DNA of 64,000 nt from NCBI RefSeq assembly GCF_963921235.1, contig NC_086097.1, positions 151,034,001-151,098,000 of the forward strand, in the 5' to 3' direction. The position numbers and the translations under genes are program-made. The notes beneath the pieces were generated by a model. It had not been told where the DNA came from. It saw only the letters and a program-made list of their open reading frames with translations, and ran no database searches. This document shows, piece after piece, positions 10,779 to 64,000 of this stretch. How positions within the stretch are numbered: the first letter of the stretch is position 1; the number at the start of each line of letters is the position of its first letter. The DNA comes from Mobula hypostoma. Its lineage: Eukaryota.

Positions 10779-10820
<42 letters not shown>

Positions 10821-15262: not shown

Positions 15263-15394
15263 TGGCTTTTATGCTGATATTTAATCCACAGATTGAGCAT
15301 TATCTTCATAAAATTATGCACTCAGGAACAATAGCACATTCTCCTGCAGCAGCACACATTACATTATTCCAGTTATCCTTTCGGTGTATGAGAT

Positions 15395-16629: not shown

Positions 16630-16735
16630 AGATAAGAACAGAAAATGCTGGAAAGGCTCAGCAATTCAGGCAGTGTTAGTGGATAGGGAAACCAATTATC
16701 ACTTCAGGTCAATGCCCTTTGTCAAGATGGGGAAG
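16630..16735 (-). mobile_element. Old Penelope-like terminal remnant
   Basis: aacagaaaatgctggaaaggctcagcaattcaggcag...ttcaggtcaatgccctt resembles the PLE termini elsewhere in the window. Confidence 0.5.
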
Positions 16736-30277: not shown

Positions 30278-30430
30278 CGCAAACAACAGGAATTCTGCAG
30301 ATGCTGGAAATTCAAGCAACATACATCAAAGTTGCTGGTGAACGCAGCAGGCCAGGCAGCATCTGTAGGAAGAGGTGCAAGCGACGTTTCAGGCCGAGAC
30401 CTGACGAAGGTCCTACAGATGCTGCTTGGC
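30278..30430. mobile_element. Very short inverted Penelope-like insertion
   Basis: A full terminus on the minus strand (aacaacaggaattctgcagatgctgg...gacgtttcaggccgagac) flips to plus at cctgacgaagg (30400) and tcctacagatgctgc. Confidence 0.8.
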
Positions 30431-34940: not shown

Positions 34941-35413
34941 CACCTGGATAGAATAAGCACCAGATAGGATTACAGCTCTATGTATCCATTTTCTGTACTT
35001 AGCCAGTCAAAGGTTCTCTTGTGTTAATCACTAAAAGTCTGTTTGCACTACTAATTACATCACCGTACACATTTATTTGGGCAGGTATTGTTTAAAATGT
35101 CTTCCTCTTCACACTTAGAAGCCAGAAACTATTGTTGCTGGTGTTACTGTAAAAAAACTGTGGAATTTCTCACATGCCTCTGAACTATAGCTACATCGAT
35201 AAAATTCAATATTACTTCTTGTTATAATTATAAATAGCAGAAAAATTAGTTCTGATGAGAGGTTATCAACCTGAATCGTTGACCCAGTTTCTCTCTTCAC
35301 AGATACTACCTGGCTTGCTGAATATTTCCATTAAATTTCAGATTTCCAATATCCTCCGCATTTTGCTTTAGTTTCTTCTATTAGTGTAAATTACCTTTCA
35401 GGTTTCCAAGATA

Positions 35414-37263: not shown

Positions 37264-37872
37264 ATGACAAACAAGAGAAAATCTGCTGACGCTGGCAATC
37301 CATGCATCACACACAAATTTCTGGAGGAACTCAGCAGGCTGGGCAGCATCTATGGGAAAGAATAAACAGTCCACGTTTCGGGCCGAGACCCTTCAGCAGG
37401 ACTGGAGAAATAAAGATGAGGAGTAGAGTTAAAAGGACACAAGGTGATGGGTGAAACTGGGGGTGGAGGGGCGAAGTAAAAAGCTGGGAAGTTGATTGGT
37501 GAAAGAGATACAGGACTGGAGAAGAGGGAATGAAATTGATTGGTGAAAGAGATACTGGGCTGGAGAAGGGATAGTCTAATAGGAGAGGACAGAAGGCCTT
37601 CCATAGCCTTCTGTCCCCTCCTGTTAGATTCCCCCTATCCAGCCCTATATCTCTTTCACCAATCAACTTCCCAGCTCTGAACTTCACCCCTCCCCCTCCT
37701 TGGGTTCACCTATCCCTCTCTGTTTCTCTCTCCCCTCCCCCACCATTTAACTCTACTCCTTATTCTTATTTCTCCTGATGAAGGGTCTCAGCCCAAAACG
37801 TCCACTGTACTCATATCCATTGACGCTGCCTGGCCTGCTGAGTTCCTCCAGCATTTTGTGTGTGTTGCTAGA
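37264..37872. mobile_element. Older inverted Penelope-like insertion
   Basis: Minus arm ~37264-37600 and plus arm ~37600-37872. Hammerhead-like motifs lie at ~37367-37404 (-) and ~37774-37808 (+). Flanks ctgttttta at 37255-37263 and 37873-37881. Confidence 0.85.
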
Positions 37873-38751: not shown

Positions 38752-40000
38752 GCCATAAGACGATAAGACATAGAGTAGGAGCAGAATTAGGCCACTCAGC
38801 CCATCACATCTGCTCTGCCATTCCATCTTATTATCTCTCTTGACCCTATTGTCCTGACTTCTCCCTGTAACCTTTGACACTCTGACTAATCAACAGTCTA
38901 TCAACCTCCACTTTAAATATACTCGATGACTTGTCCTCCAAGGGCATCTATGGCAATGAATTCCACAGATTCACCACCCTCAAACTCAAGCAATTCCTTT
39001 TCGTCTCTGTTCTAAATGGATATTGCTCCATTCTGAGGCTGTGCTTTCTGGGTCCTAGACTCACCCACCATAGGAAACATCCTCTCCACATCCACTCTAC
39101 TAAGTCTTTCAATAATCAATAGGTTTCAATGAGATACCTCCTTGTTCTTCTAGACTCCAGAGATTACAGGCCCAGAGCCATCAAATGCTCCTCATACTTT
39201 GACCCTTTCATCCCCAGAAACATTTTCACGGACCTCCTTTGGACTCTCTCCAATGCCAGCTCTTCTTTTCTTAAATAAAAGGTCCAAACTGCTCAGAATG
39301 TTCCAAGTGTGGTCTGACTAATGCCTTATAAATCCTCAGCATCACATTCCTGCTGTTCTAGTCCTCATGAAATCAATGCTAACATTGACACCCAAGTCCC
39401 TTTGCAGCTCTGATTTTTGAATTTTTTCTCCATTTAGAAAACAGTTTATGCCTTTATTCCTTCTACCAAGGTACATGACCATATACTTCCTTATACTATA
39501 TTCCATCTGCCACATTTTTGCCTGTTCTCCCAATCTGTGAAAATCCTTCTGCAGACTCTCTCCTTCCTTAACACTACCTGCCCCTCAATCTATCTTTGTA
39601 TTGTCCGCAAACTTGGTCACAAAGTCATCAATTCCATCATCCAATTAATCGACATTTAACATGAAAAGAAGCGGTCCCAATACTGACCCCTGTGGAATAC
39701 CACTTGTCACCAGCAGCCAACCAGAATAATCCCCCTTTATTCCCACACTTTGCCTCCTGCCAGTCAGCCAATCTTCTATCCATGCTAGTATCTTTTCTGT
39801 TATCCCATGGCTCTTATCTTGCTAAGCAGCCTCATGTGTGGCACCTTGTCAAAGTCCTTCTGAATATCCATGTAAACAACATCAACCATCTCTCCTTTTT
39901 GTATCCTGCCTGATATCTCCTTAAATAATTCCAACAGATTTGTTAGGCAAAATTTCCCCCTGAGGAAACTATGCTGACTTTGGCCTAATTTATCCCACCT
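38752..40000 (-). mobile_element. CR1 LINE 3' part (TCTTATGG-tailed family)
   Basis: ORFs 39800-40006 (QHSFLRGKFCLTNLL, YMDIQKDFDKVPH) and 39342-39533, with tail ccataagacgataagac. Confidence 0.88.
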
Positions 40001-40059
40001 TCCCACCTACATCCACAACACTTCTCATGCCCCTGATCTCCTCAGTAACTTTCAATTCC

Positions 40060-41145
40060 CTGGCCCTGACTGCCCCATCATGGATGTTCAGTCCCTATGC
40101 ACATATATCCCCCCATCAAGAAGGCCTCAAAGTTCTCCCTTTCTTTCTTGACAAAAGAACCAACTCATCCCCCTCCACCACCATTGTTCTCTATCTGGCA
40201 AATCTCGTCCTCACTCTGAGCAATTTTTCCTTTGGCTCCTCCCAGTTTCACCAAACTCGTGGGGTAGTCATGGGCACTCATATGGGCACCAGCTATGCCT
40301 GCCTCTTCAATGATTATGTAGAACAGTCCAAGTTTGAAGCCTTCCCTGGTTATACTCCCCAACTCTTCCTCTGCTACACTGACAACTGCATTGGCACTGC
40401 TTCATGCACCCATGCTGAGCTTTTCAATTTCATCAATTTTGTCTCTAACTTCCACCCTGTCTTTAAATTCATTTGGTCCATCTCTGACATCTCCCTCCCC
40501 TTTCTCTTCATCTCTGAAGACAAACTGTTTTATAATCCAACTTATTCCCATGGTTATCTCAACTATACCTCTTCCCACCAAATCTCCAGTAAAAATGCCA
40601 TTCCTCTTTCTCAGTTTCTTCACCTCCACTGCATGTGTTCCCAGGAGTGGCTTTCCATTCCAGGACATCAGAAATGTCTTCCTTTAAACAACAGTTTCCC
40701 ACCCTCCAGCATTAATGCTGCCTTCACCCCCATCTCCTCCATTACCCAGCATCTGTCCGTGCTCACCCCATCTTCCTGCCGTGATAGAGTTCCTCTTGTC
40801 CTCGCCTACTACTCCATCAGCCTCCACATCAACACATTATCCTCTGCAACTTCTGATGTCTCCAAAAGGATCTTTCCCTCCTTCCCATCACCACTTTCCA
40901 CAGGATTCGCTCCCTCTGCAATTCCCTTACCCGTTCATTGCTCCTGGCACTTATCCCTGCAAGTGGCCTAAGGGCTACATCTGCCCATACGCTTCCTCTC
41001 TCACCGATCCAGGGCTGCAGTCAGCCCTTCCAGGTGAGGCAACACTTTACCTGCGAATCTGCAGGGATCTTCAACTGTGTCCGGTGCTCCTGAAGCAGCC
41101 TCCTCTACATTGGTGAGATCCATCATAAATTGGGAGACAGCCTCA
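40060..41145 (+). pseudogene. Penelope-like element ORF remnant: RT domain and start of GIY-YIG endonuclease
   Basis: ORF 40027-40971 contains HQEGL..L.FFL, LVLTLSNFSF, QTRGVVMGTHMGTSYACLF, FLCYTDNCIG and AIPLSQFL. The downstream FTCES...LLYIGE is GIY-YIG-like. Confidence 0.88.
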
Positions 41146-41671: not shown

Positions 41672-43159
41672 CTGATTTTCAACCTCACTGCTACGGGCGG
41701 AAGTTCCCACTTCCTTCTAAAAAGCAACAATTATACCAGTGCCTAAGAAGAATAATGTGAGCTGCCTTAATGACTATTCCCGGTAGCACTCACATCGACA
41801 GTGATGAAATGCTTTGAGAGGTTGGACTAGAATGAACTCCTGCCTCAGCAAGGACCTGGACCCATTGAAATTTGCCTATCACTACAATAGGTCAATGGCA
41901 GATGCAATCTCAATGGCTCTTCACATGACTTCAGACCACCTGGACAACACGAACACCTAAGTCAGGATGCTGTTCATCGACTAGAGCTCAGCATTTAATA
42001 CCATCATTCCCGCGATCCTGATTGAGAAGTTGCAGAACCTGGGCCTCTGTACCTCCCTCTGCAAATGGATCCTCAGCTTCCTAACCGGAAGACCACAATC
42101 TGTGGGGATTGGTGATAGCATTTCCTCCTCGCTGATGATCAACACTGGTGCACCTCAGGGGTGCGTGCTTAGCCCACTGCTCTACTCTCTATATATCCAT
42201 GACTGTGTGGCCAGGCATAGATCAAATACCATCTATAAATTTGCTGATGATACAACCATTGTTGGCAGAATCTCAGGTGGTGACGAGAGGGCGTGCAGGA
42301 GCGAGATATGCCAACTAGTGGAATGGTGCCACAGCAACAACCTGGCACTCAGCGTCAGTAAGACAAAAGAGCTGATTGTGGACTTCAGGAAGGGTAAGAC
42401 AAAGGAACACATACCAATCCTCATAGAGGGATCAGAAGTGGAGATGTGAGCAGTTTCAAGTTCCTGGGTGTCAAGATCTCTGAGGATCTAACCTGGTCCC
42501 AGCATATCAATGCAGTTATAAAGATGGCAAGACAGCAGCTATACCTCATTAGGAGTTTGAAGAGATTTGGTAGGTCAACAAATACACCCAAAAACTTCTA
42601 TAGATGTACTGTGCAGAGCATTCTGACATGCTGCATCACTGTCTGGTATGGGGGGGGAGGTGCTACTGCACAGGACCAAAAGAAGCTGCAGAGGGTTATA
42701 AATTTAGTCGGCTCCATCTTGGGTACTAGCCTACAAAGTACCCAGGACATCTTCAAGGAGCCGTGTCTCAGAAAGGCAGCATCCATTATTAAGAACATCT
42801 AGCACCCAGGGCATGCCCTTTTCTCACTGTTACCATCACGTAGGAAGTACAGAAACCTGAAGGCACGCACTCAGGGATTCAGGAACTGCTTCTTCCCCTC
42901 TGCCATCGGATTCCTAAATGGACATTGAACCCTTGGACATTACCTCGCTTTTTTAATGTATAGTATTTCTGTCTTTTTGCACATTTTTAAAATCTATTCA
43001 ATATGTGTATACTGCAATTGATTTAGTTATTTATTTATTATTTTGGTTATTTTATTTTGGTTTTTTTTTCCTGTATTATGTATTGCATTGTACTGCTGCT
43101 GCTAAGTTAACAAATTTCACGTTACATGCCAGTGATAATAAACCTGATTCCGATTCTGA
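41672..43159 (+). mobile_element. Rex1/Babar-type LINE (same family as 22093-23487)
   Basis: ORFs 42030-42449 ([21 protein letters not shown]) and 42446-42802, with tail cctgattccgattctga. Confidence 0.93.
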
Positions 43160-44777
43160 GTTTGTCACCCCCTGAATGAAACTACTCCATGCACAAAATG
43201 GAGTTCCTGGCATTGAAATGGGCTGTGGTGGATAAGTTAAGTGACAAGTTTGAGGTGTGGACTGACTTGTACCCTGAACTTGGCAAAGTTGGATGGCACT
43301 TGTCTTCAATGGTCGGTGGCGTTGTCTGCTCATGACTTCAGCCTGAAGTATTGGCCGGGGAGTTGGAGCATTGATGCAGATATGTTGTCCCAACGCTTAC
43401 ATGAGGTGCTGGAAATGAACGAAGAGTGGGAGAGTGTTCCTGACTCTACTGTTAAAGCAATGTGTCAGTATTCCGCTACAGGGAAATCAGAGGCAATTCC
43501 CGAGCAGGATAGAGCCATGGATCATTTGGGAGCTTCTGGTTGCACCATTCCACAAGCTTACTGCAACTTAACCTCTCTGAATACAAAGCAGTTACCTTCC
43601 TTGAGTCCTGGGGCAGTGGCAGCAGCTCAACGAGACAACCCCTGTATAGATGCCATTTAGTTATCTGTTGCAGAAGGGGCTATGGCCCATGTTGAAAAGA
43701 TGAAACACCCTACCATACCCTTACTGATGAGAGAATGGAACAAACTGGAGTTGAGGAACCAGGTTTTATACAGGGTCATTGTCTCCTCCAGACAGGCCTC
43801 GGTGTTCCCAATTGGTTTGCCTGAGAAGCATTGGAGGACTGTGTAGAAGTCACTTTATGATGATTCAGGTTATTTGGGGTTTAATAAGACCTATGGATTG
43901 GTCCAAAATCGATTCTATTGGCTTCGAATGAAGCCTAAGGTTGAAGAGTACTGTAAGTCGTGCATTCGATGTATTCAGAAGAAGGCACTGCCTATGAGAT
44001 TTGCTCCATTATCCCATTTACAGATTGCAGGGCCACTTGATTTAGTGCGTATGGATTTCCTCTCCATTGAACCTGATTCCAGCAACATCGCAAATATCTT
44101 GGTCATCATGGATCACTACACCAGCTCTGCTCTAGCCTTCCTCGCAAGGGATCAGAGGGCATCTACAGTCACCCAAGTGTTATGTGAAAAGTATTTTGTT
44201 GATTATGGCCTCCCAGGAAGAATACACAATAATCAGGGAAGGCATTTTGTGAGTCAGCTCATTAATGAGTTACTGAGCATGCTTGGAGTTGAGAAGTCGA
44301 GGACCATGTCCTATTACCATCAGGGTGATCCCCAGCCTGAAAGATTCAATCAGACATTGTTGGACATGCTTGGAACCCCTGGATATCAGCAAAAAGAGCA
44401 AATGGAGTCAGCATATTGGGCATTTGGTCCACAGCTACAACTGTACACAGAATGAAATTAGCAGATACTCACCATGTTGTTTGATGTTCAGGCACAAAGC
44501 AAGATTACCTGTAGGTTTCTGTTCTGGAGCAGACAAAATATCTCAAGTATGTGTTTCACATGAGGAAAGAACTGCAAAAGGCTTATGAGCTAGCAGATGT
44601 CTCTGCTACCAAGCAAGATCAAAGAAACTAGAGGAGATATGATCAAAAGATTAGGGTCTCTTAACTGATGCCTGGAGACAGAGTTTTAATAAGGAATTTA
44701 GGCTACTTTGGAAGCATAAGCTGACGGACCACTGGGTGTCTATGCCTTATGTTGTGGAGAACCAGCTGTCAAACATA

Positions 44778-46381
44778 CAGTGGCATGCAAAAGTTTGGGC
44801 ACCCCGGTCAAAATTTCTGTTACTGTGAATAGTTGAGTTGAAGAGGAACTGATCTCCAAAGGTCATAAAGTTAAGATGAAACTTTTTTTTCAACATTTTA
44901 AACAAGATTAGTGTATTATTTTTGTTCTGTGCAATTTTAGAGTGAAAACTAGGAAAGGAGCACCATGCAAAAGTTTGGGCACCCCAAAGGTTTAAGCTCT
45001 CAGGTAACTTTTACGAAAGTCTCAGACCTTAATTAGCTTGTTAGGGCTATGGCTTGTTTGCAGTCATCGTTAGGAAAGGCCAGGTGATGCAAATTTCAAA
45101 GCTTTATAAATACCCTGACTCCTCAAACCTTGTCCCAACAATCAGCAGCCATGGGATCCTCTAAGTAGCTGCCTAACACTCTGAAAATTAAAATAAATGA
45201 TGTCCACAAAACAGGAGAAGGCTATAAGATGATAGCAAAGTGATTTCAGGTAAACGTTTCCTCAGTTCGTAACTAATTAAGAAATGGCAGTTTATAGGAA
45301 CAGTGGAGGTCAAGTTGAGGTCTGGAAGACCAAAAAAACTTTCCGAGAGAACTGCTTGTAGGATTGCTAGAAAGGCAAATCAAAATCCCTGTTTGACTGC
45401 AAAAGACCTTCAGGAAGATTTAGCAGACTCTGGAGTGAAGGTGCACTGTTCTACTGTGCAGTGACACCTGCACAAATATGACCTTCATGGAAGAGTCATC
45501 AGAAGAAAACCTTTCCTGCGTCCTCACCACAAAATTTTGCTTCAGAAGTTTGCAAAGGAACATCTAAACAAGCCTGATGCATTTTGGAAACAAGTCCTGT
45601 GGACTGATGAAGTTAAAATAGAATTTTTTGGCCAAAATGAGCAAAGGTATGTTTGGAGAAAAAAGGGTGCAGAATTTTATGAAAAGAACAATTCTCCAAC
45701 TGTTAAGCACAGGGGTGGATCAATCATGCTTTGGGCTTGTGTTGCAGCCAGTCAGTCGGGGAACATTTCACTGGTACAGGGAAGAATGAATTCAATTAAA
45801 TACCAGCAATTTCTGGAAGCAAACATCACATCGTCTGTAAAAAAGCTGAAGGTGAAAAGAGGATGCCTTCTACAACAGGATAATGATCCTAAACACACCT
45901 CAAAATCCACAATGGACTAGCAAGCTGAAGGTTTTGCCATGGCCCCCACAGTCCCCAGACCTAAACATCATTGAAAATCTGTGGATAGACCTCAAAAGAG
46001 CAGTGCATGCAAGACGGCCCAAGAATCTTACAGAACTAGAAGCCTTTTGCAAGGAAGAATGGGCGAAAATCTCCCAAACAAGAATTGAAAGACTCTTAGC
46101 TGGCTACAGAAAGCATTTACAAGCCGTGATACTTACCAAAGGGGGTGTTACTAAGTACGAACCATGCAGGGTGCCCAAACTTTTGCTTCAGGCTCTTTTC
46201 CTTTTTTGTTATTTTGAAACTGTAAAAGATGGAAATAAAAAAGTAATCTTGCTTAAAATATTAAAGAAATGTGCCATGTTTAACTTTATGCGTTTTGGAA
46301 ATCAGGTCACCTTTTACTCGCTTAGCTATTCACAGTAACAGAAATTTTGACCAGAGGTGCCCAAACTTTTGTATGCCTCTG
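44778..46381 (+). mobile_element. Full-length (1604 bp) Tc1-family transposon, IR/DR type, with disrupted DD34E-type transposase (~45151-46160)
   Basis: TA on both sides (44776-44777, 46382-46383); termini cagtggcatgcaaaagtttgggcacc / ggtgcccaaacttttgtatgcctctg. Inner DRs lie at 44964-44985 and 46169-46186. Motifs VLWTDE, QQDNDPKHTS and SPDLNIIE are present. Confidence 0.95.
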
Positions 46382-47137
46382 TACCAGTTCTCTGGGTGAA
46401 GCCAGAAGATGGGAATGGCCTTGTCAAAATTCTCCATCGGAATCTCCTTTTACCCCTCGAGTAGGAGGCATGTGTTGACTCAAAACCTGAGCTGGAACCT
46501 ACAGCTGGTAGGAGAACTCTGCGCAGAGGGAGGAGAACAGAAAGGCAATCAGCAGAAAGACCTGAAAAGGGCCCAACTACTGAATGCCATATGGACTCAG
46601 AGGATGAGGAAATGGGTGTGTGGTATATGTTATCCTATGCAAACTCCCCAAGAATTGATGAAGAGATTTCTGAATCTCCCAACCTTGACTCAGATGTATC
46701 TGGGGGTGGGAGGGGGGACAAGCAGTGGACTGGAGGACACAATGCTAGACAATGAAGGGAAGCTGGGCCCCAATGTAATTGGGGATGAAGCCAATCCCAG
46801 TCTGGTGTCAAGGGGACCTGAGTTGCTGGAAAACATGAGTAATGGACAGAGGGAAGCTTCCCCAAGTAGACAGGAAAGATCCCATGGGGTGCCTGAGGAT
46901 GAAGAAGCTGAAGATGATATGAGGTCTCAGAGAGTCTGGAAACCTCCAGATAGGCTGGCATATACACACTGGAGAAACTGAGTGTTGCATCTATCCCCAT
47001 AGTGAGGAATGTTACTGCCATTTACAAGTGGATTGAGGGTCCTGAAATTACAAAATTTATTTGAATAAGGTGCTATTAATAATGGCTTAATACATTTCAA
47101 AGTCATTTGGAAATGACTAATTTTGGTGGGGGGAGAA

Positions 47138-49579: not shown

Positions 49580-49822
49580 ATGAACGCAAGAAATTCTGCT
49601 GATGCTGGAAGTCTTGAGCAACGCACAAAAGAAATGTTAGAGGAACTCAGCAAGCCAGGCAGATCAATGAAGGGGAATAAAGAGCTGCTTCCCTCTTCTG
49701 CGCCCTCCATTTCCTTCCAGTCCTAGGAAGGGTCTCAGTCTGAAACTTTGACCATGTATTCCACTCCATAGATGCCATCTGGCTTGCTGAGATCCCCCAG
49801 CATTTTTCATGTGTTCCTGCAT
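49580..49822. mobile_element. Old short inverted Penelope-like insertion
   Basis: A minus-strand terminus (caagaaattctgctgatgctgg...ggaactcagcaagccag) is followed by a plus-strand terminus with a decayed ribozyme motif. Flanks tatgcag at 49573-49579 and 49823-49829. Confidence 0.78.
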
Positions 49823-50833: not shown

Positions 50834-51725
50834 ACAGACAAGAGAATACCTGCTGATGTTGGAAATCCGAAGGAAGGAGAGGGAAAAGGGGATGGGGAAT
50901 GGTGCCATCACTAGAAATCTGAGAAATTGATGTTCATGCTATCAGGTTGGAGGCTACCCAGACAGAATATAAGGCTATTCCTCCAACTGAATGTGGCTTC
51001 TTTGCAACAGTAGAGGAGGCCATGGATAGAAAGAGAATGGGAAGTGGAACTAGAATGGGTGGCGACTGGGAGATTCCACTTTTTCTGGCAGATGCAATGT
51101 AGGCCTCTTGTATATCGATGAGACCCAACATAGATTGGGAGACTGCTTCATTGAGCATCTATGCTCCATATGCCAGAAAAAGTGGGATCTCCCAGTGGCC
51201 ACCCATTTTAAATCCACTTCCTCTTCCCGTTCCGACATGTCTATCCATGGTCCCCTCTACTGTCATGATGATGACACACTCAAGTTGGAGGAACAATGCC
51301 TTATATTTCGTCTGGGTAGCCTGCAACCTGATGTCATGAACTTCCTCAAACTTCTGGCAATGCCTCCCCCCTCACCATGCCCTATCCTCATTTCCCTCTC
51401 TCACCTTATCCTTGCCTGCCCATCACCTCCCTCTCGTGGTTTTCCCCTCTTTTCTTTCTCCAATGGCTGTCTGTTCTCTCCTATTAGATTCCTCCTATCC
51501 AGCCCTGTATCTCTTTCACCAATCAACTTCCCAGCTCTTTAATTTATCCCTCCCCTTCCAAGTTTCACCTATCACCCTGTGTTTCTCCCTCCCCTGCCCC
51601 ACACTTCAACCCTACTCCTCATCTTTTTTCTCCAGTCCTGCCAAAGGTTCTTGTCCTGAAATACTGACTGTTCTCTTTTCACAGATTCTGCCTGGCCTGC
51701 TGAGTTCCTCCAGCATTTTGTGTGT
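50834..51725. mobile_element. Inverted Penelope-like insertion including the GIY-YIG C-terminal coding part, with a perfect 13-bp TSD
   Basis: TSD gacaaattcaatg at 50821-50833 and 51726-51738. ORF 51108-51542 has YIDETQHRLGDCFIEHL...PVATHF...EEQCLIFRLGSLQP. The left ~260 bp is antisense. Confidence 0.9.
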
Positions 51726-52899
51726 GACAAATTCAATGTGTTTATACATTAAATTACTTAAATTAAGAGCATATATTTAAAATGTTAACTTATTCTCTAT
51801 ATTTTAGGCTGAAACTGCAATTTCACTGGCGATGTGAAACTGCACAGTCATGAAGTTCTATCTTCAGAGTTATTATGGCAAAGGTGAGTTCAACCAAAAA
51901 CACAAGCGATCCACTTGTTTCATACCTTTAGCTTTTGTTTGAAGATTGAACAGCTAATTAATCATAATCAAAAGAGAACAGATTCTCATATAGTGAACCG
52001 CAGCATCACCTTGGATACCCCATGGAATCTTAATGGGAAGATAAACAGACGTTAGAATCTGAGCTGCTTTCACAGTTCAGTATCTGCAGCTGCACTGGGT
52101 TGATTTGGAACCCTGACGTGGCTGATGTCCTGCATAATAGCAGGCTATTATTGGCACAAAACAATAAAGAAAGCACGATCATATGAGAGGGTAATCCATT
52201 AACAAATTGGTCATAAGTGAAGCTCCAGACACACCAATATGCTTGCTGTTACATGATACAAGACTTCACACGGTTGAGGACAATTCATTGACTTTCAGAG
52301 GTCATTAACTAATGATCTTGGTTGGCCTGAGGTAGATTAGCACCTTTAAAGTATTCTGCATTTTTGAATACTTGGGATAGTCAATTAACCTATTTAACTC
52401 TTTTTATAGCTGTAGTTGTTTGAAAGTTAGCACAAATTTCAGTTTTTGACAGCATTTCTGATGTAAGCGTATTATTCCAACATAATCTACTCCATAATTA
52501 CTTTGCATGGACTTAATTTTTCTGTTTTCCTTTCCCACTCCTCTTCTGAAAACACTGATGCACAGATTAATGTTCTTCCAATATTCCACACTTGAGTGGC
52601 ACTGTCTGGTGCCTTGCTTCAGCGACCATCATTCTCACACATGCACTTCTGTTTGGTGAGTTTGTGTGAAAATTAACCTTGCTGCTTTTCTTAATTAACC
52701 CTGACAACAGCTGTAGGGATTTGCTATTACTTCATATGAAGTCAATTCCAGTTGAAACTTAGCACCATGCAAAGTGGTCGCTAGCGTGCTACAATTAGTC
52801 TGTGTTCTCATAGGTTGTGGCTTTGAATAGCCAAGATGAACGGTAGTCTTGGACATTAACAATTTGCCCCTCCATACTTTGGAAATAACATCCAATATC

Positions 52900-53340
52900 T
52901 GCCGTTGTGGGAGACTCGAGATTAAGGATGCCGACAGGCAATTATGTGGTTGTAATTGAGACTCCAGGGTGGTGTATTGCCTCCTGGGTGCGAGGGTCAA
53001 GGATGGTGCTCAGTCAGTACAGGAAGGTGAGCAGCCAGAGGTCATAGTCTATTTTAGAACAATTTTTGGGTTTAGCACACTTACATTTAGCAAATGACTG
53101 TATGATGCCTGTTGTACCTTGTTTCGTCGAATAAAGAAGCTGCTTTATATCTACCTGTACTTTTCTCCAGTGGCTTAATTCATGTAACAGCAGTTTTTAT
53201 AGGTATCGAAGATATAGGCAGAAGCAGAGGTAATGTTCTGCAAAGTGATTTTAGGGAGCTAGGTAGAAATTATAATGCTGCAATTCCACGGTTGTAATCT
53301 CAGGATTACTACCTCTGTCACATGCTAATGAGGTAAGAAA
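52900..53340 (+). pseudogene. CR1 ORF1 SGNH esterase-like fragment
   Basis: Translates to VVGDS, VVYCLLGARVKD, EQPEVIV, DIGR, DFRELGR and VVISGLLP, with an insertion at ~53055-53195. Confidence 0.7.
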
Positions 53341-53369
53341 TAGACACTTCAATTGGACATGCAGTTCAA

Positions 53370-54415
53370 TATAGAACACAGACATCCACAGCACATTACA
53401 GGCCCTCCGGCCCACAACTGCCTAGAATTTCCCTAGCACATAGCCCTCTATTTTTCAAAGCTCCATATACCTATCTAAGAGGCTCTTAAAACCCTATAGT
53501 ACCTGTTTCCACCACAGTCGCCAGCAGCCCATTCCACGCACCCACCACTCTCTGAGTGAAAAACTTACCCCTGACGTCTCCTCTGTATCTACTTCCAAGC
53601 CCCTTAAAACTATGCTTCCTTGTGTTAGCCATTTCAGCCATTTCAGAGGAGAAAGCCTCTGACTATCCACACGATCAATGCTTCTCATCATCTGATACAC
53701 CTCTATAAGGTCACCTCTCACCCTCTGTCACTCCAAGGAGAAAAACCCAAGGTCACCCAACCTATTCCTATAAGGCCACATTCTCCAATCCAGGCAACAT
53801 TCTTTTAAATCTCCTCTGCACTCTCTCTATAGTATCCACATCCTCTCTGTAGTGAGGTGACCAGAACTGAACACAGTACTCCAAATGGGGTCTGACCAAG
53901 GTCTTATATAACTGTAACATTATCTCACGGCTCTTGAACTCAATCCCAAGGCTGGTAAATGCCAACACACCATATGCCTTCTTAGCAACACTGTCATCCT
54001 CTGCAGCAGTTTTGAGTGTCCTATGGACATGGACCCCAAAATCTCTCTGATCCTCCACTCTGCCAGAAGTCTTACCACTAATATTATATTCTGCCTTCGA
54101 ATTTTACCTTCCAAAATGAACCACTTCACCCTTTTCTGGATTGGACTCGATCTGCCACTTCTCAGCCCAGTTTTGCATCCTATCAATGTCCCGCTGTAAC
54201 CTCTGACACCCCTCCAGACTATTCACAATACCCCCAACTTTTGTGCCATCAGCAAACTTACTAACCTACCCTTTTACTTATTCATCCAGGTCAATTATAA
54301 AAACCACAAAGAGGAAGGGTTCCAGAACAGATCCCTGCAGACACCACTGGTTACCGGCCTCCATGCAGAATACGAACCATCTACAACCACCCTTTTCCTT
54401 CTGTGGGCAAGCCAA
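53370..54415 (-). mobile_element. CR1 LINE 3' part
   Basis: ORFs 53768-54058 (YKTLVRPHLEYCVQFWSP) and 53494-53721. Confidence 0.9.
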
Positions 54416-54416
54416 T

Positions 54417-54985
54417 GGAGTTAAATTGACTTTATATCTTACATCCTTCACATATGTGACAAGTAAAAATCTTTACGTTACATCTCCAAATGAATGTGCA
54501 ATGTGCAAATTATAGCTATTTGTAACAAATAGTATGTGCAGTAAGATATACAACAGGGCAGTCAATATAGCTTAGAAATACAACCGTATCAGCAAGAATT
54601 AATCAGTCTGATGGTCTCGTGGAAGAAGCTGTCTCGGAGCTTGTTGGTCCTGACTTTTATCTGCAGTACCGTTTCCTGGATGGTAGCAGCTGGAACAGTT
54701 TGTGGTCGGGCCCTTTTTACGCACCTGTCTCTGTAAATGTCCTGAATCGTGGGAAATTCACATCTACAGATGCACTGAGCTGTCCACACCACTCTCTGCA
54801 GAGTCCTGCAATTGAGGGAAGTACAGTTACCATACTAGGTAGTGATGCAGCCAGTCAGGATGCTCTCAATTGTATCCCTGTTGAAAGTCCTTCAGATGTG
54901 GGGACTCATGCCAAACTTTTTCACCCCACAGCCAGTATGTGCAGACCACGTGAGATCCTCAGTGATGTGTATGCCGAGGAACTTG
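54417..54985 (-). mobile_element. Rex1-type LINE 3' fragment
   Basis: ORF 54589-54792 (TAQCI...PTIQDIY..RC.KRA, TNKLRDSFFHETIRL). Confidence 0.75.
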
Positions 54986-54999
54986 CCGAAGACCCCACT

Positions 55000-56090
55000 G
55001 ATCAGAATTCAGGATCATGGTGCGGTAAGGGTCAAGGACAAGGAAGTAAGGTAAGGAAGCCTTGGATAACCCGAAGGGTCCAGTAATTATTCAGGAAGAA
55101 AAAAGAAGCATGCAGGTATGTAGGGTTCAGGAAGATAAGATAAGATTAGCCTGGACCCTTGTGGAATATGAAGTTAGCAGAGCAGTGCTCAAGCAGGCTA
55201 TTAGAAAGGCCAAAAGGAGCTATTAAATGTCCTTGATAAGGAGGATCAAGGAGAATCCCAAGGTATTGTATACATCTTAAAATAACTAAGGAGAGGTTGG
55301 TCTGTTCAGAGATAAAAGAATTTGTGCTTGAACCAGTGAAATTGGCTGGGGTACTAAATGAGTACTTTGTAAGACCTGGAGACCATAAGACTTAACAGCA
55401 GAATTAGGTAATTCAGCCTATAGAGTCTGCTGTGTCAATCAACCATGACTGATCTTTCATCCCTTTCAACCCGGTTCTCCTACCTTCTCCCCATATCCTT
55501 TAATGCTGTGACTAATGAACAACATATCAACCTCCACTTTAAATATACCCTATGACTTGGCTTCCATAGCCATCTGTGGCAATGAATTCCACAGATTCAC
55601 CACCCTCTGGCTAAAGAAATTCCTCCTCATCTTTATTCTAAAGAGACACCTTTCCATCTGAGGCTGCGCCTTCTGGTCCTAGACTCCCTCACTATAGGAA
55701 ATATCCTTTCCACATCTACTCCATTTAGGCCTTTCAGTGTTTGATAGGTTTCAATGAGATCCCCCCTTATTCTTCTAAGCTATAATGAGTATGGGCCCAG
55801 ACCATCAAACACTCTTCACATGTTAACCATTTCATTCTGAATCATTTCCATGATCCTCCTCTGGACTGGATCCAGTGCCAGCGCATCCTTTCCTAGAGAA
55901 TGGGCCTAAAACCGCTCACAATACTCCAAGTGTGGTGTGACCAATGCTTTCTAAAGCCTCAGCTGTGTTGGTACTTACTGAGGAGAAGGAGTTCCAGTAT
56001 AGTGAAAATACGCTGGGGCATTTTGAGTTTAAGGAGGGGGTAGTGCTGGGTCTTCTTAAAAACATTAAAGTTTCCAGAGCTGATGGCATA
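55000..56090 (+). mobile_element. CR1 linker fragment with nested antisense CR1 3' end (55371-55963)
   Basis: Host motifs KPWIT, RIKENPK and VLNEYF|...FTEEK. The insert begins aagacctggagaccataagac and ends aaagcctcagc, with a 3-bp tgt duplication. Confidence 0.8.
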
Positions 56091-56281
56091 ACGAAGAGGA
56101 ATTGTGTTTTACCTAGAGTCATAGAGGGATGCAACGGGAGAGCAGCCCCTTTTGCCCACTGACTGAACACAGATCATCAGCCACCAATTTACATTAGTCC
56201 TACATTAGTCCCACTGTCAATTCTTTGCACATTCTTATTAGATAACAACACCCCCCCCCCCCCCCACCCGGCAGATTCACC

Positions 56282-57740
56282 TGTCACAACCATGGACACA
56301 GAGTCTGAGTGCTCTTGCAGGCAGGCAGCTGAAAGAAGATGACAATCATGCATGTGAGAACATTCCAGCAGATTAGGGTTCCTTTGTAGTTGTATTTAAC
56401 TCTCTTCCTTTCGCTTCAGTCTTGTCATGTCCTGAACGAAGTACAGCAACGCTCCGTTTACTTTCGTCCTTGTTCCGGTAAAGAAGATCAGTGATTAGGT
56501 AGAGTCTGTTAAGGGAGCAGTGTTAATTTAGTTCCATATTACTGCTTTTGAGCTGCAGTAATAGCGTTAGTTAGAGAGTGGCCTTGTTGGCCTAGCGTTT
56601 ATTATTTTCCTTTGTTCTATACACAACCCTTGGATCAATTGGTACCCAAGGGTTCTAAGAGTGGGGACAGGCAGAAAGAATACCAAGGCTAATGTTCCCC
56701 CCCCACCAGTTTGACATCTCTGAGGACAGTACCAACCCAAAGCCCATTCTTCACTGCACTTGCATATCTGTTCTGGTGACTTGGAATAGAAACTGAGGTG
56801 AAGATGACACAGTGATCCAGATGATCCAGCCTGGGGTGAGGGACCTCCCAACAGGCTGCTTGTCCCTGCCACTGTGCACCCCAGAATGTTGGAATAGGGT
56901 TACCCTTCCCATCTGGTTGGCTACCCGGGGCTTCAACAGACCTTAGAATTCATAAAGAAATGATTTTGGTGGCCATCTATGTCCCAAGATGCTCACGACT
57001 TTGTCTCTGCCTGTCCCACTTGTGCCCAGAACAAGGTGTCACATCAGCACTCTGCTGGTCTGTTCTTCCCACTGTCTGTCCTCACTACCCTTGGAGTCCC
57101 TGCTGCTGAATAGTTGGTCCAACACTGCAAGTGCATTTGGAGATGGGCCAGGGCTTTTCTGCTGCGAACCCAGAATCAATATGCCCGGTTGGCTAATTGG
57201 CTCTGTTGACAGTTAAGGCCTCTCAAGCCAGCAAAAAATGTCTGGCTGGTGTCTACATTGAAAGTTGAGAGTCGCAAGATGGTCGCTCACAATGTGGGAC
57301 CATCTATAGTAAAGAAGGCTGTCAACTGAGCCTCTGTAGGCTGAACCTACAGAAGATCCACGAAGATTCACATGTCCCACGTCTCCCAGAAGTCGGTGAC
57401 TCCCCTCCCCCGTTGCTCCAATCACTCCCCCATATCCTGCTTGATGGATGGGTCACTGGTCTATTTTGTGCAGCACAGCCTGGCATCTCACTGGGACCAA
57501 GGCAGTGTCCAGTACTTTGTTGATGAGGAAGGGCATGGTCCTGAGGATTGTTATTTGGTTCCAGCTAAACACATCGCGGACAAGTCTCTCATTTGGGACT
57601 CCAGTGGGCACAGGCCTCAGGCGCATCGGGAACTGTGCTGTAGGGAGGAGGGCCCTGTCACAACTGTGATACAGCTGTGCAGTCTAGGCACACACACAGG
57701 TAGCAGCTGAAAGAAGATGGCAACCACACACATGAGACTG
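56282..57740 (+). mobile_element. Internally deleted chromoviral (sushi-like) Gypsy element with both LTR starts
   Basis: LTR starts tgtcacaac...cagctgaaagaagatg lie at 56282 and 57656, with PPT agggaggagggccc. Integrase zinc-finger GYPG..QTL.FI...FWWPSM..D..DFVSACPTCAQNK; chromodomain QYFVDEEGHGPED..LVP.KHI.D..LI (~57462-57593). Confidence 0.8.
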
Positions 57741-58357
57741 TAGGAAATGGAGGAGATGTGGGGTAAGGGCAGATCTGTGGGAAATGGAGGAGATGTGGGT
57801 GAGGGCAGCACCAGTGGTGATGGAAGGACTTTAATGCAATGGATTTTTGAAGGGGCAGGTACAAGTAATATTCTCCTCCTTTACTTAAGTAATGTCTTTG
57901 ATAATTTATTCTATGATTTTCCACCCCATCTGTCATGAAACTTGAGGCTTGAGATGCAACCAGCCTCCTGTTACTTGATCTCAGTAGAGCATCTGTTAAG
58001 TGTGATGTTGGGAGTGACTGTAGCAAGTCACCTTCCTGGAAGAGAGGTGACTTTACATGCAAGTTAAATACAATATAGCGACAATCAAATCATATTTCCC
58101 TGAATGAAAAGTAATCAAAAGCATTACTAGGATTTGACACAGCATCAGTGAAGGATTGATGACCTGTGGCCATTCTATGTGGTTTGCAGATGAGCTTGCA
58201 AATGATCATTTTCCCATGCTGTTTCTGCTCTTGTCCTTTTTGATCATTAAGGTTGTGAGTCAGAAGGTGCTATCAAAATTAGTTTAGTGAGTTGCTGAAA
58301 CACTGCAGGCACAGTTCATCAACAATTCATAGAATAGATTTTGATCCTTGTGTTATA

Positions 58358-58921
58358 CACTCCATGGCCATTTTATTAAGTACACCTGTACATCAGCTCG
58401 TAAATGCAAAATCTAATTAGCCAATCATGTGGCAGCAACTCAATGGTTAAAAGCATGAAGACGTGGTCAAGAGCTTCATTTGTTCTTTGGACACCAGAAT
58501 GGGGAAGAAATGTGATCCAAGTGACTTTCACCATGGAATATATGTTGGTGCCAGATGGGGTGGTTGGGGTACCTTAGAAACTACTGATCTCCTGGGATTT
58601 TCGCACACAACTGTCTATAGAGTTTGCAGAGAATGGTGCAAAACAAAAAACATCAGTCAGTGAGCAGCAGTTTCGTGGGCGAAAATGCTGTGTTAATGAG
58701 AGAGGTCAAAGGTGAATAGCCAGACTGATTCAAGCTGACAGGAAGGTGACAGCAATTCTAATAACCACATGTTACAACAGTGGTGTATAGAAGAGCATCT
58801 CCGAATGCACAATATGTTGAGCTTTGAAGTGGATGGGCTACAGCAGCAGAAGACCACAAATATACACTCACTGACCACTTTATTAAGTACAGGAGGTACC
58901 TAATAAAAGGGCCACAGAGTG
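58358..58921 (+). mobile_element. Non-autonomous Tc1 derivative with N-terminal transposase remnant, terminating in a 57-bp TIR-only MITE (58865-58921)
   Basis: TA-cactccatggccattttattaagtac ... gtacctaataaaagggccacagagtg-TA. ORF MGKKCDPSDFHHGIYVGAR...LLGFSHTTVYRVCREW is HTH-like. Confidence 0.8.
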
Positions 58922-60585
58922 TACGTGCCCATCGAACAATGTTCTGAATGGATAGCATTGTGCTTTTTGATGCAGTAAAGTTTTCATTGATCTAGGTACT
59001 AGTATGATGTTGATCACCTTTCACCTCTGCAAATCAATGAATAACATTAACCGAGTATCCATTTCCTTGGCACCTCAGATAACTCCTTAAATGGTAGGTA
59101 GACTTCCCATATGCTAATGAAGGGCCTGTCTGAGGACACTCAGCAATGATGGTCAGCGTTGAGAAAGGCATGCATTAGGAATGTCCGGTTTAGGTTTTGG
59201 TAGGGTTGGAATGACCAAATATTTTCTTGTGCTGGTTTTTCCCTGTAAAATTTTTACATATATTTTGAGACATAGTTATCAATGGAAATTAAAATAGGGA
59301 GAAGCGTGTTACAGAAAATATCACGAAAAATCAGAATTACTCCTTATAATACTCAGAGTGCAGCATTTTATCAGCACCAGATATGTCATTGTTCCACTTA
59401 AATTGTAACCCATAATTCTACATATATGGTACTTCTCTGACCTTTCTATGTAAAATCAAAACTGGAAAGTTCTTCTATTAATTTTCTAGAAATATAACCA
59501 GAATTTCCACTCAATTGCTTTTGTAATTTCAGTGGTAAAGCGGGGAACTTGTGCCTGTAGGCTTGTGTATGCTAATCTCGGTCCTTCATTCATGAATTAA
59601 ATTCGGATGATATATTTTCTTACAATCTTCAGCCTTTCCAATCCCAAACATGTACATAAACATGGTTCATTTATAAAGCATGCTTGAAGTGTGTACATAC
59701 TTGAACTGCAGTGAAGAATGAACATAAAGATAGTCAAGGGAACAGATATTAGGCAGAGTGACAGAAGTTCAGTGAAAGAGGTGAGTTTTAAGGAGTGTCT
59801 GCACACAGGAGAGAGAGAAGTAGAATAAGTTCAGGAGAAGAATTCTGCTCTTGGGTTAAGTGTGTTGAAAGGACATCTTGTCTCTTTGATTCCCCTCAAA
59901 TTCTCTTGAGTTTTTCAGACCATGTGTGGTTTGCCTTTGCTCCTCATCAAATATTACTGTCAGAGTCTGACAATAGTTAAAATCTATTGTTTGTTACTGG
60001 TGAGACCAATGAACAGTAGTTAATACCTTCTAATCACTGCAGATTTTCACTTCTTTCTTGGATATTGGCACACCCTTCCTAACTTCACAATTCCCCAACC
60101 ACTCTAATTGTTAAAAATAAAGATAAAACTAGACTGCGGTTTCTGGAGGAGCAGTTCTATTGTAAAGACTTTAAAAATACCCAGATCTATAAAGCATGAT
60201 TTCATACCAAGGCAAATTAATTTCTCTTTTTCAACAGAACCAAATGAAATTCCAATGTCACGTAGATTTCAAAAAATGAGCCTTAGAGGAAATCTTCCAA
60301 AAGAGAGGTTAGGATGAGTAACATTTCAAAGAAGCTACAGAAAAAGGAAACAAATATACAGTCAATGACAAATGCTGTGAAAGATATTTCAGATGTAAAA
60401 ATCAGTGCAAAGGCAATAAAGTTCAGCATTGTTAAATTAGAAAAGTTGACATTTCTCCTCTTTTTCTCATTTATCCATGTCAATGAATTTATTACAATAG
60501 TGAGAAGATTTTCTGGAAATTCTGCAACACACATCAAAGTTGCTGGTGAACGCAGCAGGCCAGGCAGCATCTCTAGGAAGAGGTA

Positions 60586-60623
60586 CAGTCGACGTTTCAG
60601 GCCGAGACCCTTCGTCAGGACTA
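60586..60623 (-). ncRNA. Minimal hammerhead ribozyme motif (mirror copy)
   Basis: Exact reverse complement of 61116-61153. Confidence 0.72.
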
Positions 60624-61115
60624 ACTGAAGGAAGAGTTAGTAAGAGATTTGAAAGTGGGAGGGGGGAGGGGGATATCCAAAATGATTGGAGAAGACAGGA
60701 GGGGGAGGGATGGAGCCAAGAGCTGGACAGGTGATTGGCAAAGGGGATATGAGAGGATCATGGGACAGGAGGTCTGGGGAGAAAGACAAGAGGGGGCGGA
60801 ACCCAGAGGATGGGCAAGGGGTTTAGTCAGAGGGACAGAGGGAGAAAAAGGAGAGTGAGAGAAAGAATGTGTGTATAAAAATAATCTCCTTTTTCTCCCT
60901 CTGTCCCTCTGACTAAACCCCTTGCCCATCCTCTGGGTTCCGCCCCCTCTTGTCTTTCTCCCCAGACCTCCTGTCCCATGATCCTCTCATATCCCCTTTG
61001 CCAATCACCTGTCCAGCTCTTGGCTCCATCCCTCCCCCTCCTGTCTTCTCCAATCATTTTGGATATCCCCCTCCCCCCTCCCACTTTCAAATCTCTTACT
61101 CACTCTTCCTTCAGT

Positions 61116-61153
61116 TAGTCCTGACGAAGGGTCTCGGCCTGAAACGTCGACTG
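61116..61153 (+). ncRNA. Minimal type I hammerhead ribozyme motif (PLE type), predicted cleavage after C61148
   Basis: UAGUC(stem I)-CUGACGA-AGG[GUCUCGG]CCU(stem II)-GAAA-CG-UC^-GACUG(stem I'). All core nucleotides are present, with palindromic ACGU in place of stem III. Confidence 0.72.
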
Positions 61154-62044
61154 TACCTCTTCCTAGAGATGCTGCCTGGCCTGCTGCGTTCACCAGCAAC
61201 TTTGATGTGTGTTGCTTGAACTTCCAGCATCTGCAGAATTCCTGTTGTCTGGAATTTCTGCAAATTATTTTGCAAAGTTCTATTGGAAAATACATTGATT
61301 TGCATGTAATACTTACCCATTCTGTAAAAGAATCTCTTCGTATAAATTTAAATTAGTCACTGGCTTGAAAGAAGGGCAGGGAAGTGGGCAGACTCCAGGG
61401 ATTATGTGTTGATATAATAACCTTGAACCCATAAGTATTTAGATAGCTACTAAATGGCTATCTTAATCTTTAAAGTTGTGATAATTTCACAATTTGAAAT
61501 GGGGACACTTCTTTTTACCTCATTAGGGAGAGAGAGAGAGTTTGTGGTATGTCAAATGACTGGGTGAACGAGTAGTCTTTGGGGTACTGCAAGTCTGTGT
61601 CTTTATTGATGCTTTGCTGCATGCTTAAGTGCTTGGTTGGGGGTGCCGATGAATTTTTGCAGGTGGGGGAAAGGGGGTTCATTGTTTTGCTGCTGCTTAT
61701 GCGTGAGTGGGGGGGAGCTGAGCGGGGCTTTGTGGTTCTAACATTTAACTCTCATTCATCCTTCAGGGCACTCCTCTGTTTTTCTGGCTGTTTCTGAAGA
61801 AAAAGAATTTCAGAATGCATATTGTATACATTTCTCTGACATTCAATGTACCTATTGAACCTACTGAATTTTCAGAAGTTTCAATGCAGACACTTGTTGG
61901 ATGCCAGCAGTAACACCGTGGGATAAGTCTTGCATCTGTTTAAATGCTTATTCATGCCATTTCCCTTGGTAGTTGTGTTACCTGAAAGCTGAAAAGCAGG
62001 ACCTCCAAGATAGTAATCTATGGATTGCTATCTGTTCCACGTGC

Positions 62045-64000
62045 CATAAGGCCATAAGATATAGGAGCAGAAATTGGCCATTTGGCCCATCGAGTCTCCT
62101 CTGCCATATCATCAAGGCTAATCCAATTTTCCTCTCAGCCCCAAACTCCTGCCTTCTTCTTGAATTCATGCCCTGACCAATCAAGAATCTATCAACCTCA
62201 ATGTTAAATATACATGGAGATTTAGCCTCCAGTGCTGTCTGTAGCAACAAATTCCGAAGATTCACTACTTTCTGCCTACAGGAATTCTTCCGCAACTTCA
62301 TTCCAAAAGGACGCCTCTATATTCTAAGACTGTGTCCTCTGGTAGGAAACATCCTCTCCACATCCAGTCTATCAAGGCCCTTCACCATTCGATTGGTTTC
62401 AATGAGGTCACGCCTAATTTTTCTGAATTCTAGTGAATGGAAGCCCACAGCTATCAAACATTCTTCATGTGACAAGCCATTCAATCCTGGAATCATTTTT
62501 GTGAACCTCGTTTGAACCCCCTCCAGCTTCATCACATCAATTCTAAGAAAAAGAGCCCGAAACTGCTCACAATGCTCCAAGTGAGGCCTCACCAGTGCTT
62601 TATAAAGCCTTCTCCCATGAATCTCAGCCAGTGGTATGGAGAGGACCCCACATGCTCCCTCTGCCCAACTTCAGCAACACTAACACACATTCTGGTGGGC
62701 TGCAAGACCAGCCTTACTCAAAGCCGATACACCTGGTGACACAACCAGGTGCTACGGTGTCTTGCAGCGGTGCTGGAAAGTCGGTGGATGAACGTCAACA
62801 CTCTCCCTCCCCCTTCATCCCGCTGGCCATTAACAGCATTTGTCCGAGAAGGTGAGGGTCAAGCCAGACTCGATACATTGAGACCAGACACTGGGCGGCT
62901 AGGCAGGGCACGTGATTGGAAGATGGCGGCAGACTTAGGCCAGAGGCTCTGCTTCCCAACTGAAATTGCGGAAACCAACCTCAGACCAGACCTTGTGCTA
63001 TGGTGGGCCTCACTCTATCTCGTTTACATCATTGAGCTTACAGTGCCCTGGGAGGATGCAGTGGAGGAGGCCTACGAGCGCAAGAAGCTGAGGTACACTG
63101 AGCTTTCAGCCGATGTGCAACAACATGGCTGGAGAGCAAGGGTCCAACCCGTCGAATTAGGCTGCAGAGGATTTGTAGCCACATCAACATCAAGGCTACT
63201 CCGGGAGTTGGGAGTGTGAGGTAAGACACACCGACAAGCAGTCAAAGATCTCTCCAGAGCTGCTGAAAAGGGTAGTCAGTGGCTCTGGATGAAGAGAAAC
63301 GATTCCATCTGGGCCCCAAGTGAGTGAAAGGCATCTAGGGGGTGAGCCCGGGACGCCGGGATTCACTGCTGAACCCTCTGGAGGTGTCGTGGGCCTATCA
63401 GCGAAACACTGAGGAAAGAGGGCGCTCACTTGATAACCCAGAAGATGCCACCACACAGTTGGCCACCCCACAGAGTCTAGGCAGCATTGTTTCAGGAGTG
63501 CAAAGAAGGGATATTAACATCTCGTCCTATATAACATACCTCAACATTACTTCCTTGCTTTTATATTCTAATCATCTTGAAATGAATTTGCCTTCCTCAT
63601 CACAGACTCAAACTGCAAATTAACCTTTAGGGAATTCAGCACAAGTCCCTTTGCATCTCAGTTTTTTGTTTTTTTCCCTTTATTTAGAAAATAGGTAATC
63701 CTTTCATTTCTTCTACCGAAGTGCATGACCATACACTTCCCAACTGTATTGCATCTACCATTTCTTTGCCCCTTCTTCTAATCTGTCTGTCCTTCTGTAG
63801 CCTCTCTACTTCCTCAAAACTACCTGACCCTCCACCTATCTTCATATCATCTTCAAACTTTTGCAACAAAGCCATTAATTCCATCATCTAAATCATTAAC
63901 AAATGACATTAAAAGAGTCAATCCCAACACAAAACCCCTGTGGAACTCTACTGGTCACCAGCAGCCACCCAGAAAAGGCTTCCTTTATTCCCACTATTTG
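62045..64000 (-). mobile_element. CR1 LINE (TCTTATGG-tailed family) interrupted by a HERO-type element; runs off the window
   Basis: ORFs 62317-62592 (RPHLEHCEQF) and 63684-63887 (KFEDDMKIGG), with tail ccataaggccataagatatagg. Confidence 0.88.
62611..63530 (+). mobile_element. 5'-truncated HERO-type (RLE-clade) non-LTR retrotransposon: CCHC finger, restriction-like endonuclease, 3'UTR
   Basis: CSLC..ATLTHILVGC, RYTW(R)HNQVL, LRPDLVLW, IIELTVPWE, YERKKLRY and PVELGCRGF. The two in-frame TGA stops sit at expected Arg positions. Confidence 0.88.

Follow-up and report, generated by a model that had tools for sequence, protein, structure and literature searches.

The 38-nt motif at 61116-61153 (+) of the window, the 64,000-nt stretch of the Mobula hypostoma genome that we analysed (G000:C1:151034001-151098000), is by its sequence a minimal hammerhead of type I, carried in the pseudo-LTR of a Penelope-like element (PLE) that bears an endonuclease. 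The copies in the window are likely 5′-truncated insertion leftovers that do nothing for or to the host. As a whole, the observations are best explained, and with good confidence, by a PLE minimal hammerhead left behind in truncated copies, which would arise by two-site priming on uncut or rejoined RNA and would lie buried in inverted pairs. The motif and its PLE home have been known since 2014, and we describe here a very abundant further family.

The first-pass annotation, made from the sequence of the window, had reported a 38-mer with a full core and pairing stems at 61116-61153 (+), and this is present as read, together with an identical hammerhead on the antisense arm of the same insertion (60586-60623, -). 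The type I order of core elements C3-A9, G12-A15.1, U16.1 and H17 is complete in the flagged copy. Helix I pairs 61116-61120 with 61149-61153, the catalytic core occupies 61121-61127 and 61141-61144, and the predicted cut, correctly placed by the annotation, falls at 61148/61149 (60591/60590 in the antisense copy). An unpaired A (61128) is bulged between positions 9 and 10.1 and is invariant in the family alignment. Helix III consists only of the palindrome ACGU at 61144-61147 (15.2-16.2), and the monomer has no stable helix III. Helix I has 4-5 bp and helix II can pair, with 80% and 94% of cells paired.

Stem II had been drawn as AGG/CCU around seven nucleotides, which was not borne out (-5.6 versus -7.0 kcal/mol for the alternative). 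By homology with older families, helix II (61129-61132/61137-61140) follows the bulged A with G-U, G-C, G-C and U-G pairs and closes a 4-nt loop. Energy evaluation with both helices formed gave -7.0 kcal/mol for the flagged motif and -10.5 for an older copy. The first helix II pair is G10.1-C11.1 in the older families and G10.1-U11.1 in the flagged subfamily, where the U at 11.1 (window 61140) is a change at a CpG in the dominant subfamily. Such a G-U pair presumably lowers activity; our literature search found no paper on its effect. Immediately 5′ of helix I, at 61097-61118, we noticed a branch-point-like motif followed by a pyrimidine tract and AG, and the tract and AG are kept across all families despite sequence change. 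PMC4209133 describes a comparable intron end in the element of Drosophila virilis.

Counting with a descriptor of the core plus helices, we found that the window holds three complete copies, whereas 100 shuffled windows scored with a slightly looser descriptor averaged 0.06 and never exceeded 1. The bare loose core pattern was weakly enriched (13 versus 7.3 expected). An Rfam scan of the window gave 83 matches at E<=5 with no hammerhead family among them, and its miRNA matches were just the long hairpins. The third complete copy (14986-15023, -), already called intact, is confirmed; it differs in a single loop II base and is predicted to be buried in a hairpin. It belongs to a second tail-out inverted pair (14890-15262), whose 158-nt arms differ by 8 mismatches and whose left arm has the long tail, flanked by a 13-bp duplication at 14877-14889 and 15263-15275. 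Two copies had been listed as near-intact. Both exist, but the one at 15167-15204 (+) carries one mismatch in helix I, and the one at 34748-34780 (+) has largely lost the 5′ strand of that helix; the latter sits in a short solo copy (34746-34876, +) that starts ~30 nt before the cut site.

The copies listed as decayed (37367, 37770, 35248, 49717, 51633 and 11045) are all true homologues, with nhmmer E values of 3e-7 or better. Most are decayed older-family hammerheads: 37367-37404 (-) with a damaged core (A6, C17) and a G10.1-C11.1 pair, its partner arm 37770-37807 (+) in the same old inverted pair (37304-37868), 49717-49754 (+), 11045-11082 (+), and 51633-51670 (+) downstream of a GIY-YIG relic. 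The heavily decayed copy at 35248-35283 (+; E 3e-7) is of a still older class. Absent from the annotation were copies at ~30378-30415 (-), 16693-16730 (-) and 10789-10906 (-), along with two weak matches near 48.9 and 49.6 kb; 30281-30415 (-) is a copy that breaks off within helix II, where a short stub in inverted orientation adjoins it. Coding relics are present as well, namely a Penelope-like RT plus endonuclease region of an older family (39999-41141, +; 56% at the amino acid level to the young RT) and an inverted pair of GIY-YIG endonuclease relics (50914-51341). As had been proposed, the window thus holds minimal, dimer-type hammerheads in the termini of Penelope-like elements; they occur on either strand and belong to several age classes.

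Repeats that also occur in other sampled loci make up about half of the window. A Tc1/mariner-like DNA transposon with nested inverted repeats lies at 44776-46383 (transposase fragments 45465-46338), and it apparently interrupts an LTR retroelement integrase fragment (Integrase_H2C2, rve) seen at 43847-44455 and 46400-46981. Non-LTR retrotransposon fragments occupy 363-1928, 31695-32183, 33882-34789, 41985-42449 and 62740-63219, with RVT_1 matches at 888-1928 and 33882-34439. Elsewhere, L139:5875-6850 is an array of 44-bp tandem repeats, to which pieces at 3858-3974 and 5176-5248 of the locus are related.

Sister copies of the element carry an ORF with an RT, a DKG motif, a C-x4-C-x2-C linker and a GIY-YIG domain, and the ORF ends ~330 nt upstream of the cut site. 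Profile matches were RVT_1 at E 5.7e-6 and 0.003 (below the curated cut-off) and GIY-YIG at E 1e-4. The linker between RT and endonuclease, CKRNKCYTC, fits the CX2-5CxxC pattern that defines the Neptune clade and that Nematis has as well (PMC8557442); by this motif only, the evidence points to a Neptune-type family. When 20 loci were picked for the front part of the ORF, four (L287, L289, L290 and L300) had a direct pseudo-LTR ahead of it, with the hammerhead core intact in three. L287, L289 and L290 are partial tandems that run unbroken from ORF end through 3′-UTR, hammerhead and tail into the ORF start. In L300 (G000:C12:171606159-171609427), 859 codons are open to the locus edge with a pseudo-LTR in front, and from this reading frame the family may have been active recently.

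The family shares with the endonuclease-positive PLEs of PMC8557442 and PMC3846280 an RT with C-terminal GIY-YIG, partial tandems, head-to-head inverted 5′-truncated copies, target-site duplications and a one-sided tail of 30-40 bp. The minimal hammerheads in PLE pseudo-LTRs published in 2014 by Cervera and De la Pena (PMC4209133) agree with ours in type I order, full core, 5-bp helix I, the extra base between 9 and 10.1, the palindromic 15.2-16.2 without loop III and pseudo-LTR location; there too, most copies are single and truncated, and opposite-strand pairs lie 100-700 bp apart. The present motif differs from the account in that paper in its 4-bp helix II and in showing no covariation signal between families. 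Its dominant subfamily has G10.1-U11.1, whereas the pair is a highly conserved G-C there, although G10.1-C11.1 is given as a trend, outside the descriptor. Non-LTR retrozymes, described in a 2026 preprint (bioRxiv 10.64898/2026.07.22.740005), likewise have a type I hammerhead related to Penelope pseudo-LTRs, but they form head-to-tail tandem units with a ribozyme in each, unlike the solo or inverted copies here. We found no tandem of that type (two or more successive units, each with a hammerhead) in the window, and a direct neighbouring piece of any kind in 6 of the 106 sampled copies.

Searching the 3.48-Gb genome with exact patterns, we counted 57,109 cores with U11.1 and 19,468 with C11.1, while reversed-pattern controls gave 0 matches. 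The core and inner helices are intact in 57,914 genomic copies, one per 60 kb, and the 3′ downstream anchor occurs 106,540 times. The claim that the genome is seeded with the motif therefore holds, at tens of thousands of copies. The highest count for a vertebrate in PMC4209133 (~9,000, Xenopus tropicalis) is exceeded at least sixfold, a comparison across different search methods. About three quarters of intact cores have U11.1 (72 of 89 sampled copies have U at this position), which argues that amplification proceeded without need of the G-C pair.

We checked conservation in a main sample of 106 copies, drawn from the first 17 Mb of one contig and picked by the downstream anchor rather than by the ribozyme. 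After dropping the anchor and 13 subfamily-diagnostic sites and counting non-CpG changes only, private changes were equally frequent in core (10/814), stems (17/1275) and flanks (50/4287; p=0.86). The excess conservation of core and stems over flanking PLE sequence that had been looked for is thus lacking after insertion, which is half of what the annotation had named as refuting its proposal. A/T core sites tended towards conservation (2/583 versus 26/2522, p=0.14), and G/C core sites were mutated more (8/231 versus 24/1765, p=0.025). No subfamily-diagnostic site lies in the core, and one of them is position 11.1. Between families, by majority letters of 4-5 copies, the motif differs at 2/33 and 3/33 positions versus 24/62 and 18/64 in the downstream flank, a contrast that is inflated because the second family was fetched with a core-fixing pattern. 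The equal decay of core and flank, together with this contrast, argues that the element lineage keeps the motif and that inserted copies lose it at the background rate. It had also been suggested that pairing is kept while the sequence differs across age classes; what sets the classes apart are C/U changes on one side of a pair, which turn it into a wobble and do not amount to covariation. In 16 sequences covariation did not rise above shuffles (363/500), a test of low power in which the stems hardly vary.

In the 106 copies the 3′ ends are bimodal, 58 short (~+65 from the cut site) and 48 long (~+100). There were 37 inverted junctions; seven without a second 3′ end were set aside, and the other 30 combined one long with one short end in every case (30/30). 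The 5′ ends were scored in a set of 145 within -61 to +30 that includes added copies selected for truncation, and 34/145 lie in helix I's first strand, between -33 and -31. The same position accounted for 21/53 solo copies, and for 10/58 in the unselected sample alone. A pile-up at the cut site was rejected, since 5/145 ends lie there and 7.9 were expected. A distance-dependent drop-off of the RT was rejected as well, because arms with long and short tails peak at the same place. A splicing origin of the boundary found no support either: a join of ORF stop to helix I was not found in the loci searched, an exon join fails to explain the boundary, and no shared upstream exon was present at 25 solo junctions between -37 and -29 (the 31 inverted junctions of that search were classed by script and partly inspected). 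Duplications of 12-17 bp flank many of the short solo copies, directly at the ends or close to them, and short copies carry the diagnostic letters of all subfamilies.

Our literature search, which reached few subscription journals, found no report of a 5′ pile-up at a hammerhead or of a one-long-one-short count. In passages of PMC8557442 and PMC3846280 on endonuclease-positive PLEs we likewise saw no 5′ pile-up, and the one-long-one-short rule is counted in the present data; the family or its 5′ boundary may already be visible in published supplements, namely the alignments of PMC4209133 and the genomic ends of PMC11167929. Two further observations concern individual breaks. The inverted insertions L004 and L019, on different contigs, share the 5′ break of the antisense arm (reference position 749) and not the other break, so that position 749 is a possible break hot spot. 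L128 and L195 (G000:C1 near 170.4 kb and 2960.8 kb) hold tail fragments from +8 behind the same unrelated upstream sequence and are, as read, a duplicated locus or a chimeric repeat.

We propose that the element's protein would bind element RNA and cut the target with a stagger, leaving ~12-17 bp duplications. Reverse transcription would begin at two fixed sites, ~65 and ~100 nt downstream of the ribozyme cut site, on template RNA that would be uncut at the ribozyme, or cut and rejoined. Both target strands would be extended, one from each start site, and the cDNAs would likely be joined by short homology, so that a tail-out inverted pair results whose ends are one long and one short. If the ribozyme cleaves at all, it would do so as a dimer or with help of the element's protein, as a step in the cycle of the element itself. 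A precedent is Poseidon_Ac of the green anole (Frangieh et al. 2024, PMC11167929), in which two internal RT starts define the tail 3′ of the hammerhead, the tail runs into the ORF start, both strands are extended, and uncut RNA is the main template. The present family resembles it in the two starts, the tail and the uncut template. It differs in clade, as judged by the linker motif, and is known from sequence alone; its likely start codon lies ~140 nt past the cut site, versus inside helix II in Poseidon_Ac. PMC3846280 accounts for head-to-head pairs through self-priming on an antisense template, whereas our data fit two primings on sense RNA.

Many cDNAs end 31-35 nt upstream of the cut site, a point that most likely marks the RNA start at the front edge of helix I. 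We lean, if only modestly, towards run-off at such a start as the cause of the 5′ boundary; other causes are possible too. The main one is a stall or template boundary, in which a protein or a front-edge hairpin stops a telomerase-like RT part of the time. The 53/106 sampled copies that extend beyond -50 would suit such a part-time stop, although these read-through copies are explained as well if a full transcript was primed at its downstream tail. Folding predicts an alternative hairpin with its loop over -34 to -29, and 27/145 ends form a shoulder between -28 and -20; yet the main peak is past the 3′ arm of that hairpin, and helix I would already be opened once the RT arrives from the 3′ side. 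Moreover, the peaks at -35 and -32/-31 are at, or within two bases of, A residues in initiator-like contexts. A stall is possible and less probable than run-off.

We also weighed whether the ribozyme cuts and religates the element RNA into a circle that is then copied, which is compatible with two-site priming on rejoined RNA and would attribute the absent cut-site peak to religation rather than to a lack of cleavage. Such a circle was proposed in PMC4209133, the lineage does conserve the motif, and partial tandems cross the unit junction unbroken, but read-through of tandem copies explains those tandems equally well. A circle has no 5′ end and leaves the sharp boundary at helix I unexplained, and the catalytic mutants of the anole element inserted unchanged in vitro (PMC11167929). 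We regard the circle as unlikely.

The flagged insertion itself is a palindrome (60512-61263) that bears on how such pairs are made. Its arms are a 5′-truncated pseudo-LTR with the long 3′ end (60882-61248, +; tail to ~+100 from the cut site) and an inverted, likewise 5′-truncated one with the short 3′ end (60524-60884, -; ~+65), with an unpaired spacer at 60855-60884. The ~35-nt tail at 61215-61248 (+) is on one arm only and leads into the ORF start in near-full-length copies. The left target-site duplication (60512-60527) matches the right one (61248-61263) at 15/16 positions, though its limits are uncertain, as it overlaps the arm by its final 4 nt and is similar to the tail. The two arms are the most alike among 18 pairs of at least 200 nt. 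Homogenisation between arms in tight palindromes was not seen in general, divergence being 2.9%, 3.2%, 4.3% and 3.4% by spacer class.

Performing a genome search with the inversion junction (60866-60897), we found one other locus (G000:C1:151277081), 182 kb away, even at 3 mismatches. This sister palindrome, L003 (G000:C1:151276.7-151277.4 kb), has unrelated flanks and its own duplications, and there the opposite arm bears the long tail. Two letters that are seldom found elsewhere (0 and 3 of 25 other copies) are common to all four arms. Both window arms are 3-4 changes from one L003 arm and 11-12 from the other, and they share changes absent from L003, which need a lost intermediate, another allele or arm-to-arm conversion. 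Segmental duplication was rejected because the flanks of the twin palindromes do not align. Copying of a palindromic transcript, with two primings and cDNAs annealing past the old junction, would keep the junction and swap the tails, giving exactly the pattern observed and thus fitting the twin loci. Ectopic gene conversion would give the same pattern, and an assembly artefact may also lie behind it. Joined with the rest, the reading would be that RNA starts at helix I, that a protein dimer primes both strands on uncut RNA, one from each fixed start site, and that the two palindromes are parent and daughter; we offer this combination tentatively, as one that may well not hold in full.

The first-pass annotation had further suggested that the copies could cut host intronic or lncRNA transcripts. 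This is not supported, because the complete window copies are predicted to be buried and have no tandem partner, inserted copies decay like their flanks, and published minimal motifs are inactive as monomers; no covariation signal is seen either. Each of the three complete copies in the window is part of a tail-out inverted pair, and the arms of these pairs match over 331 nt with 1 mismatch (60524-61248 pair) and over 158 nt with 8 (14890-15262 pair). A transcript of such a pair from either strand makes the antisense arm first, and a host transcript across it would then form a predicted long duplex burying the ribozyme. Accounting for neither proteins nor kinetics, folding models predict that the complete window copies are fully paired to the antisense arm on either strand. 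The predicted ribozyme helix probability was 0 in both palindromes and 0.001 in a lone 366-nt arm. No same-strand complete partner of the complete window copies exists within 45 kb. Minimal hammerheads assayed in PMC4209133 showed no monomer cleavage and low dimer cleavage; the anole ribozyme cleaved only with the element's protein, and no RNA reads ended at its cut site (PMC11167929).

Intact hammerheads could still be active in host introns or lncRNAs if abundant repeat RNAs formed dimers in trans or the element's protein assisted. The 57,914 structurally intact copies speak for this, as do the folding of both helices in a short RNA starting at helix I (predicted probability 0.3-0.7) and the under-representation of tandem retrozymes in Xenopus introns reported in the 2026 preprint. 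Complete copies make up 47/106 of the sample, and 17 of them have an antisense partner over the motif, 5 a partner elsewhere, 3 a direct neighbour and 22 none; these 22 solo copies are not buried and may cut occasionally. Against it stand the predicted burial, the missing tandem partner, core decay equal to flank decay, a helix III that is merely a 4-nt palindrome, the U at 11.1 in most sampled copies and the published assays. No host exon was found in the window among 136 of 204 candidate frames, a weak test that misses short exons; two sub-threshold Pfam matches were not convincing. Cutting of host RNA by these copies is unlikely, and general activity in host transcripts we consider very improbable. 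The frame at L005:5-310, ~400 nt from an inverted pair, resembles what we take to be an exon of a Na/K-ATPase beta subunit, and therefore such pairs likely lie in introns too. The sequencing runs listed were all contigs, none of them recorded as RNA; those over 52000-60500 were chiefly repeat-like stretches and have no bearing on expression.

Least credible is that the short or palindromic units were amplified as a non-autonomous element in its own right (SINE, MITE or retrozyme): the sharp common 5′ end, the clean duplications and the one junction found twice would suit it, but short copies bear the diagnostic letters of every subfamily, from all of which they derive (so that a separate SINE master was rejected), junctions vary between pairs, the flagged junction has only two copies, and direct neighbouring pieces are as rare as stated above.

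The ~58,000 structurally intact copies are far above published vertebrate counts, and this abundance makes the genome a good place to test host-RNA cutting by minimal hammerheads. Such cutting, if true, would matter a lot; nothing here is in its support. The insertion statistics bear on how PLEs integrate and on what purpose the ribozyme serves: they suggest that the template is uncut, that each inverted insertion takes two primings and that helix I forms a boundary. If this reading of integration is true, the genome would be a fossil record of Penelope integration.
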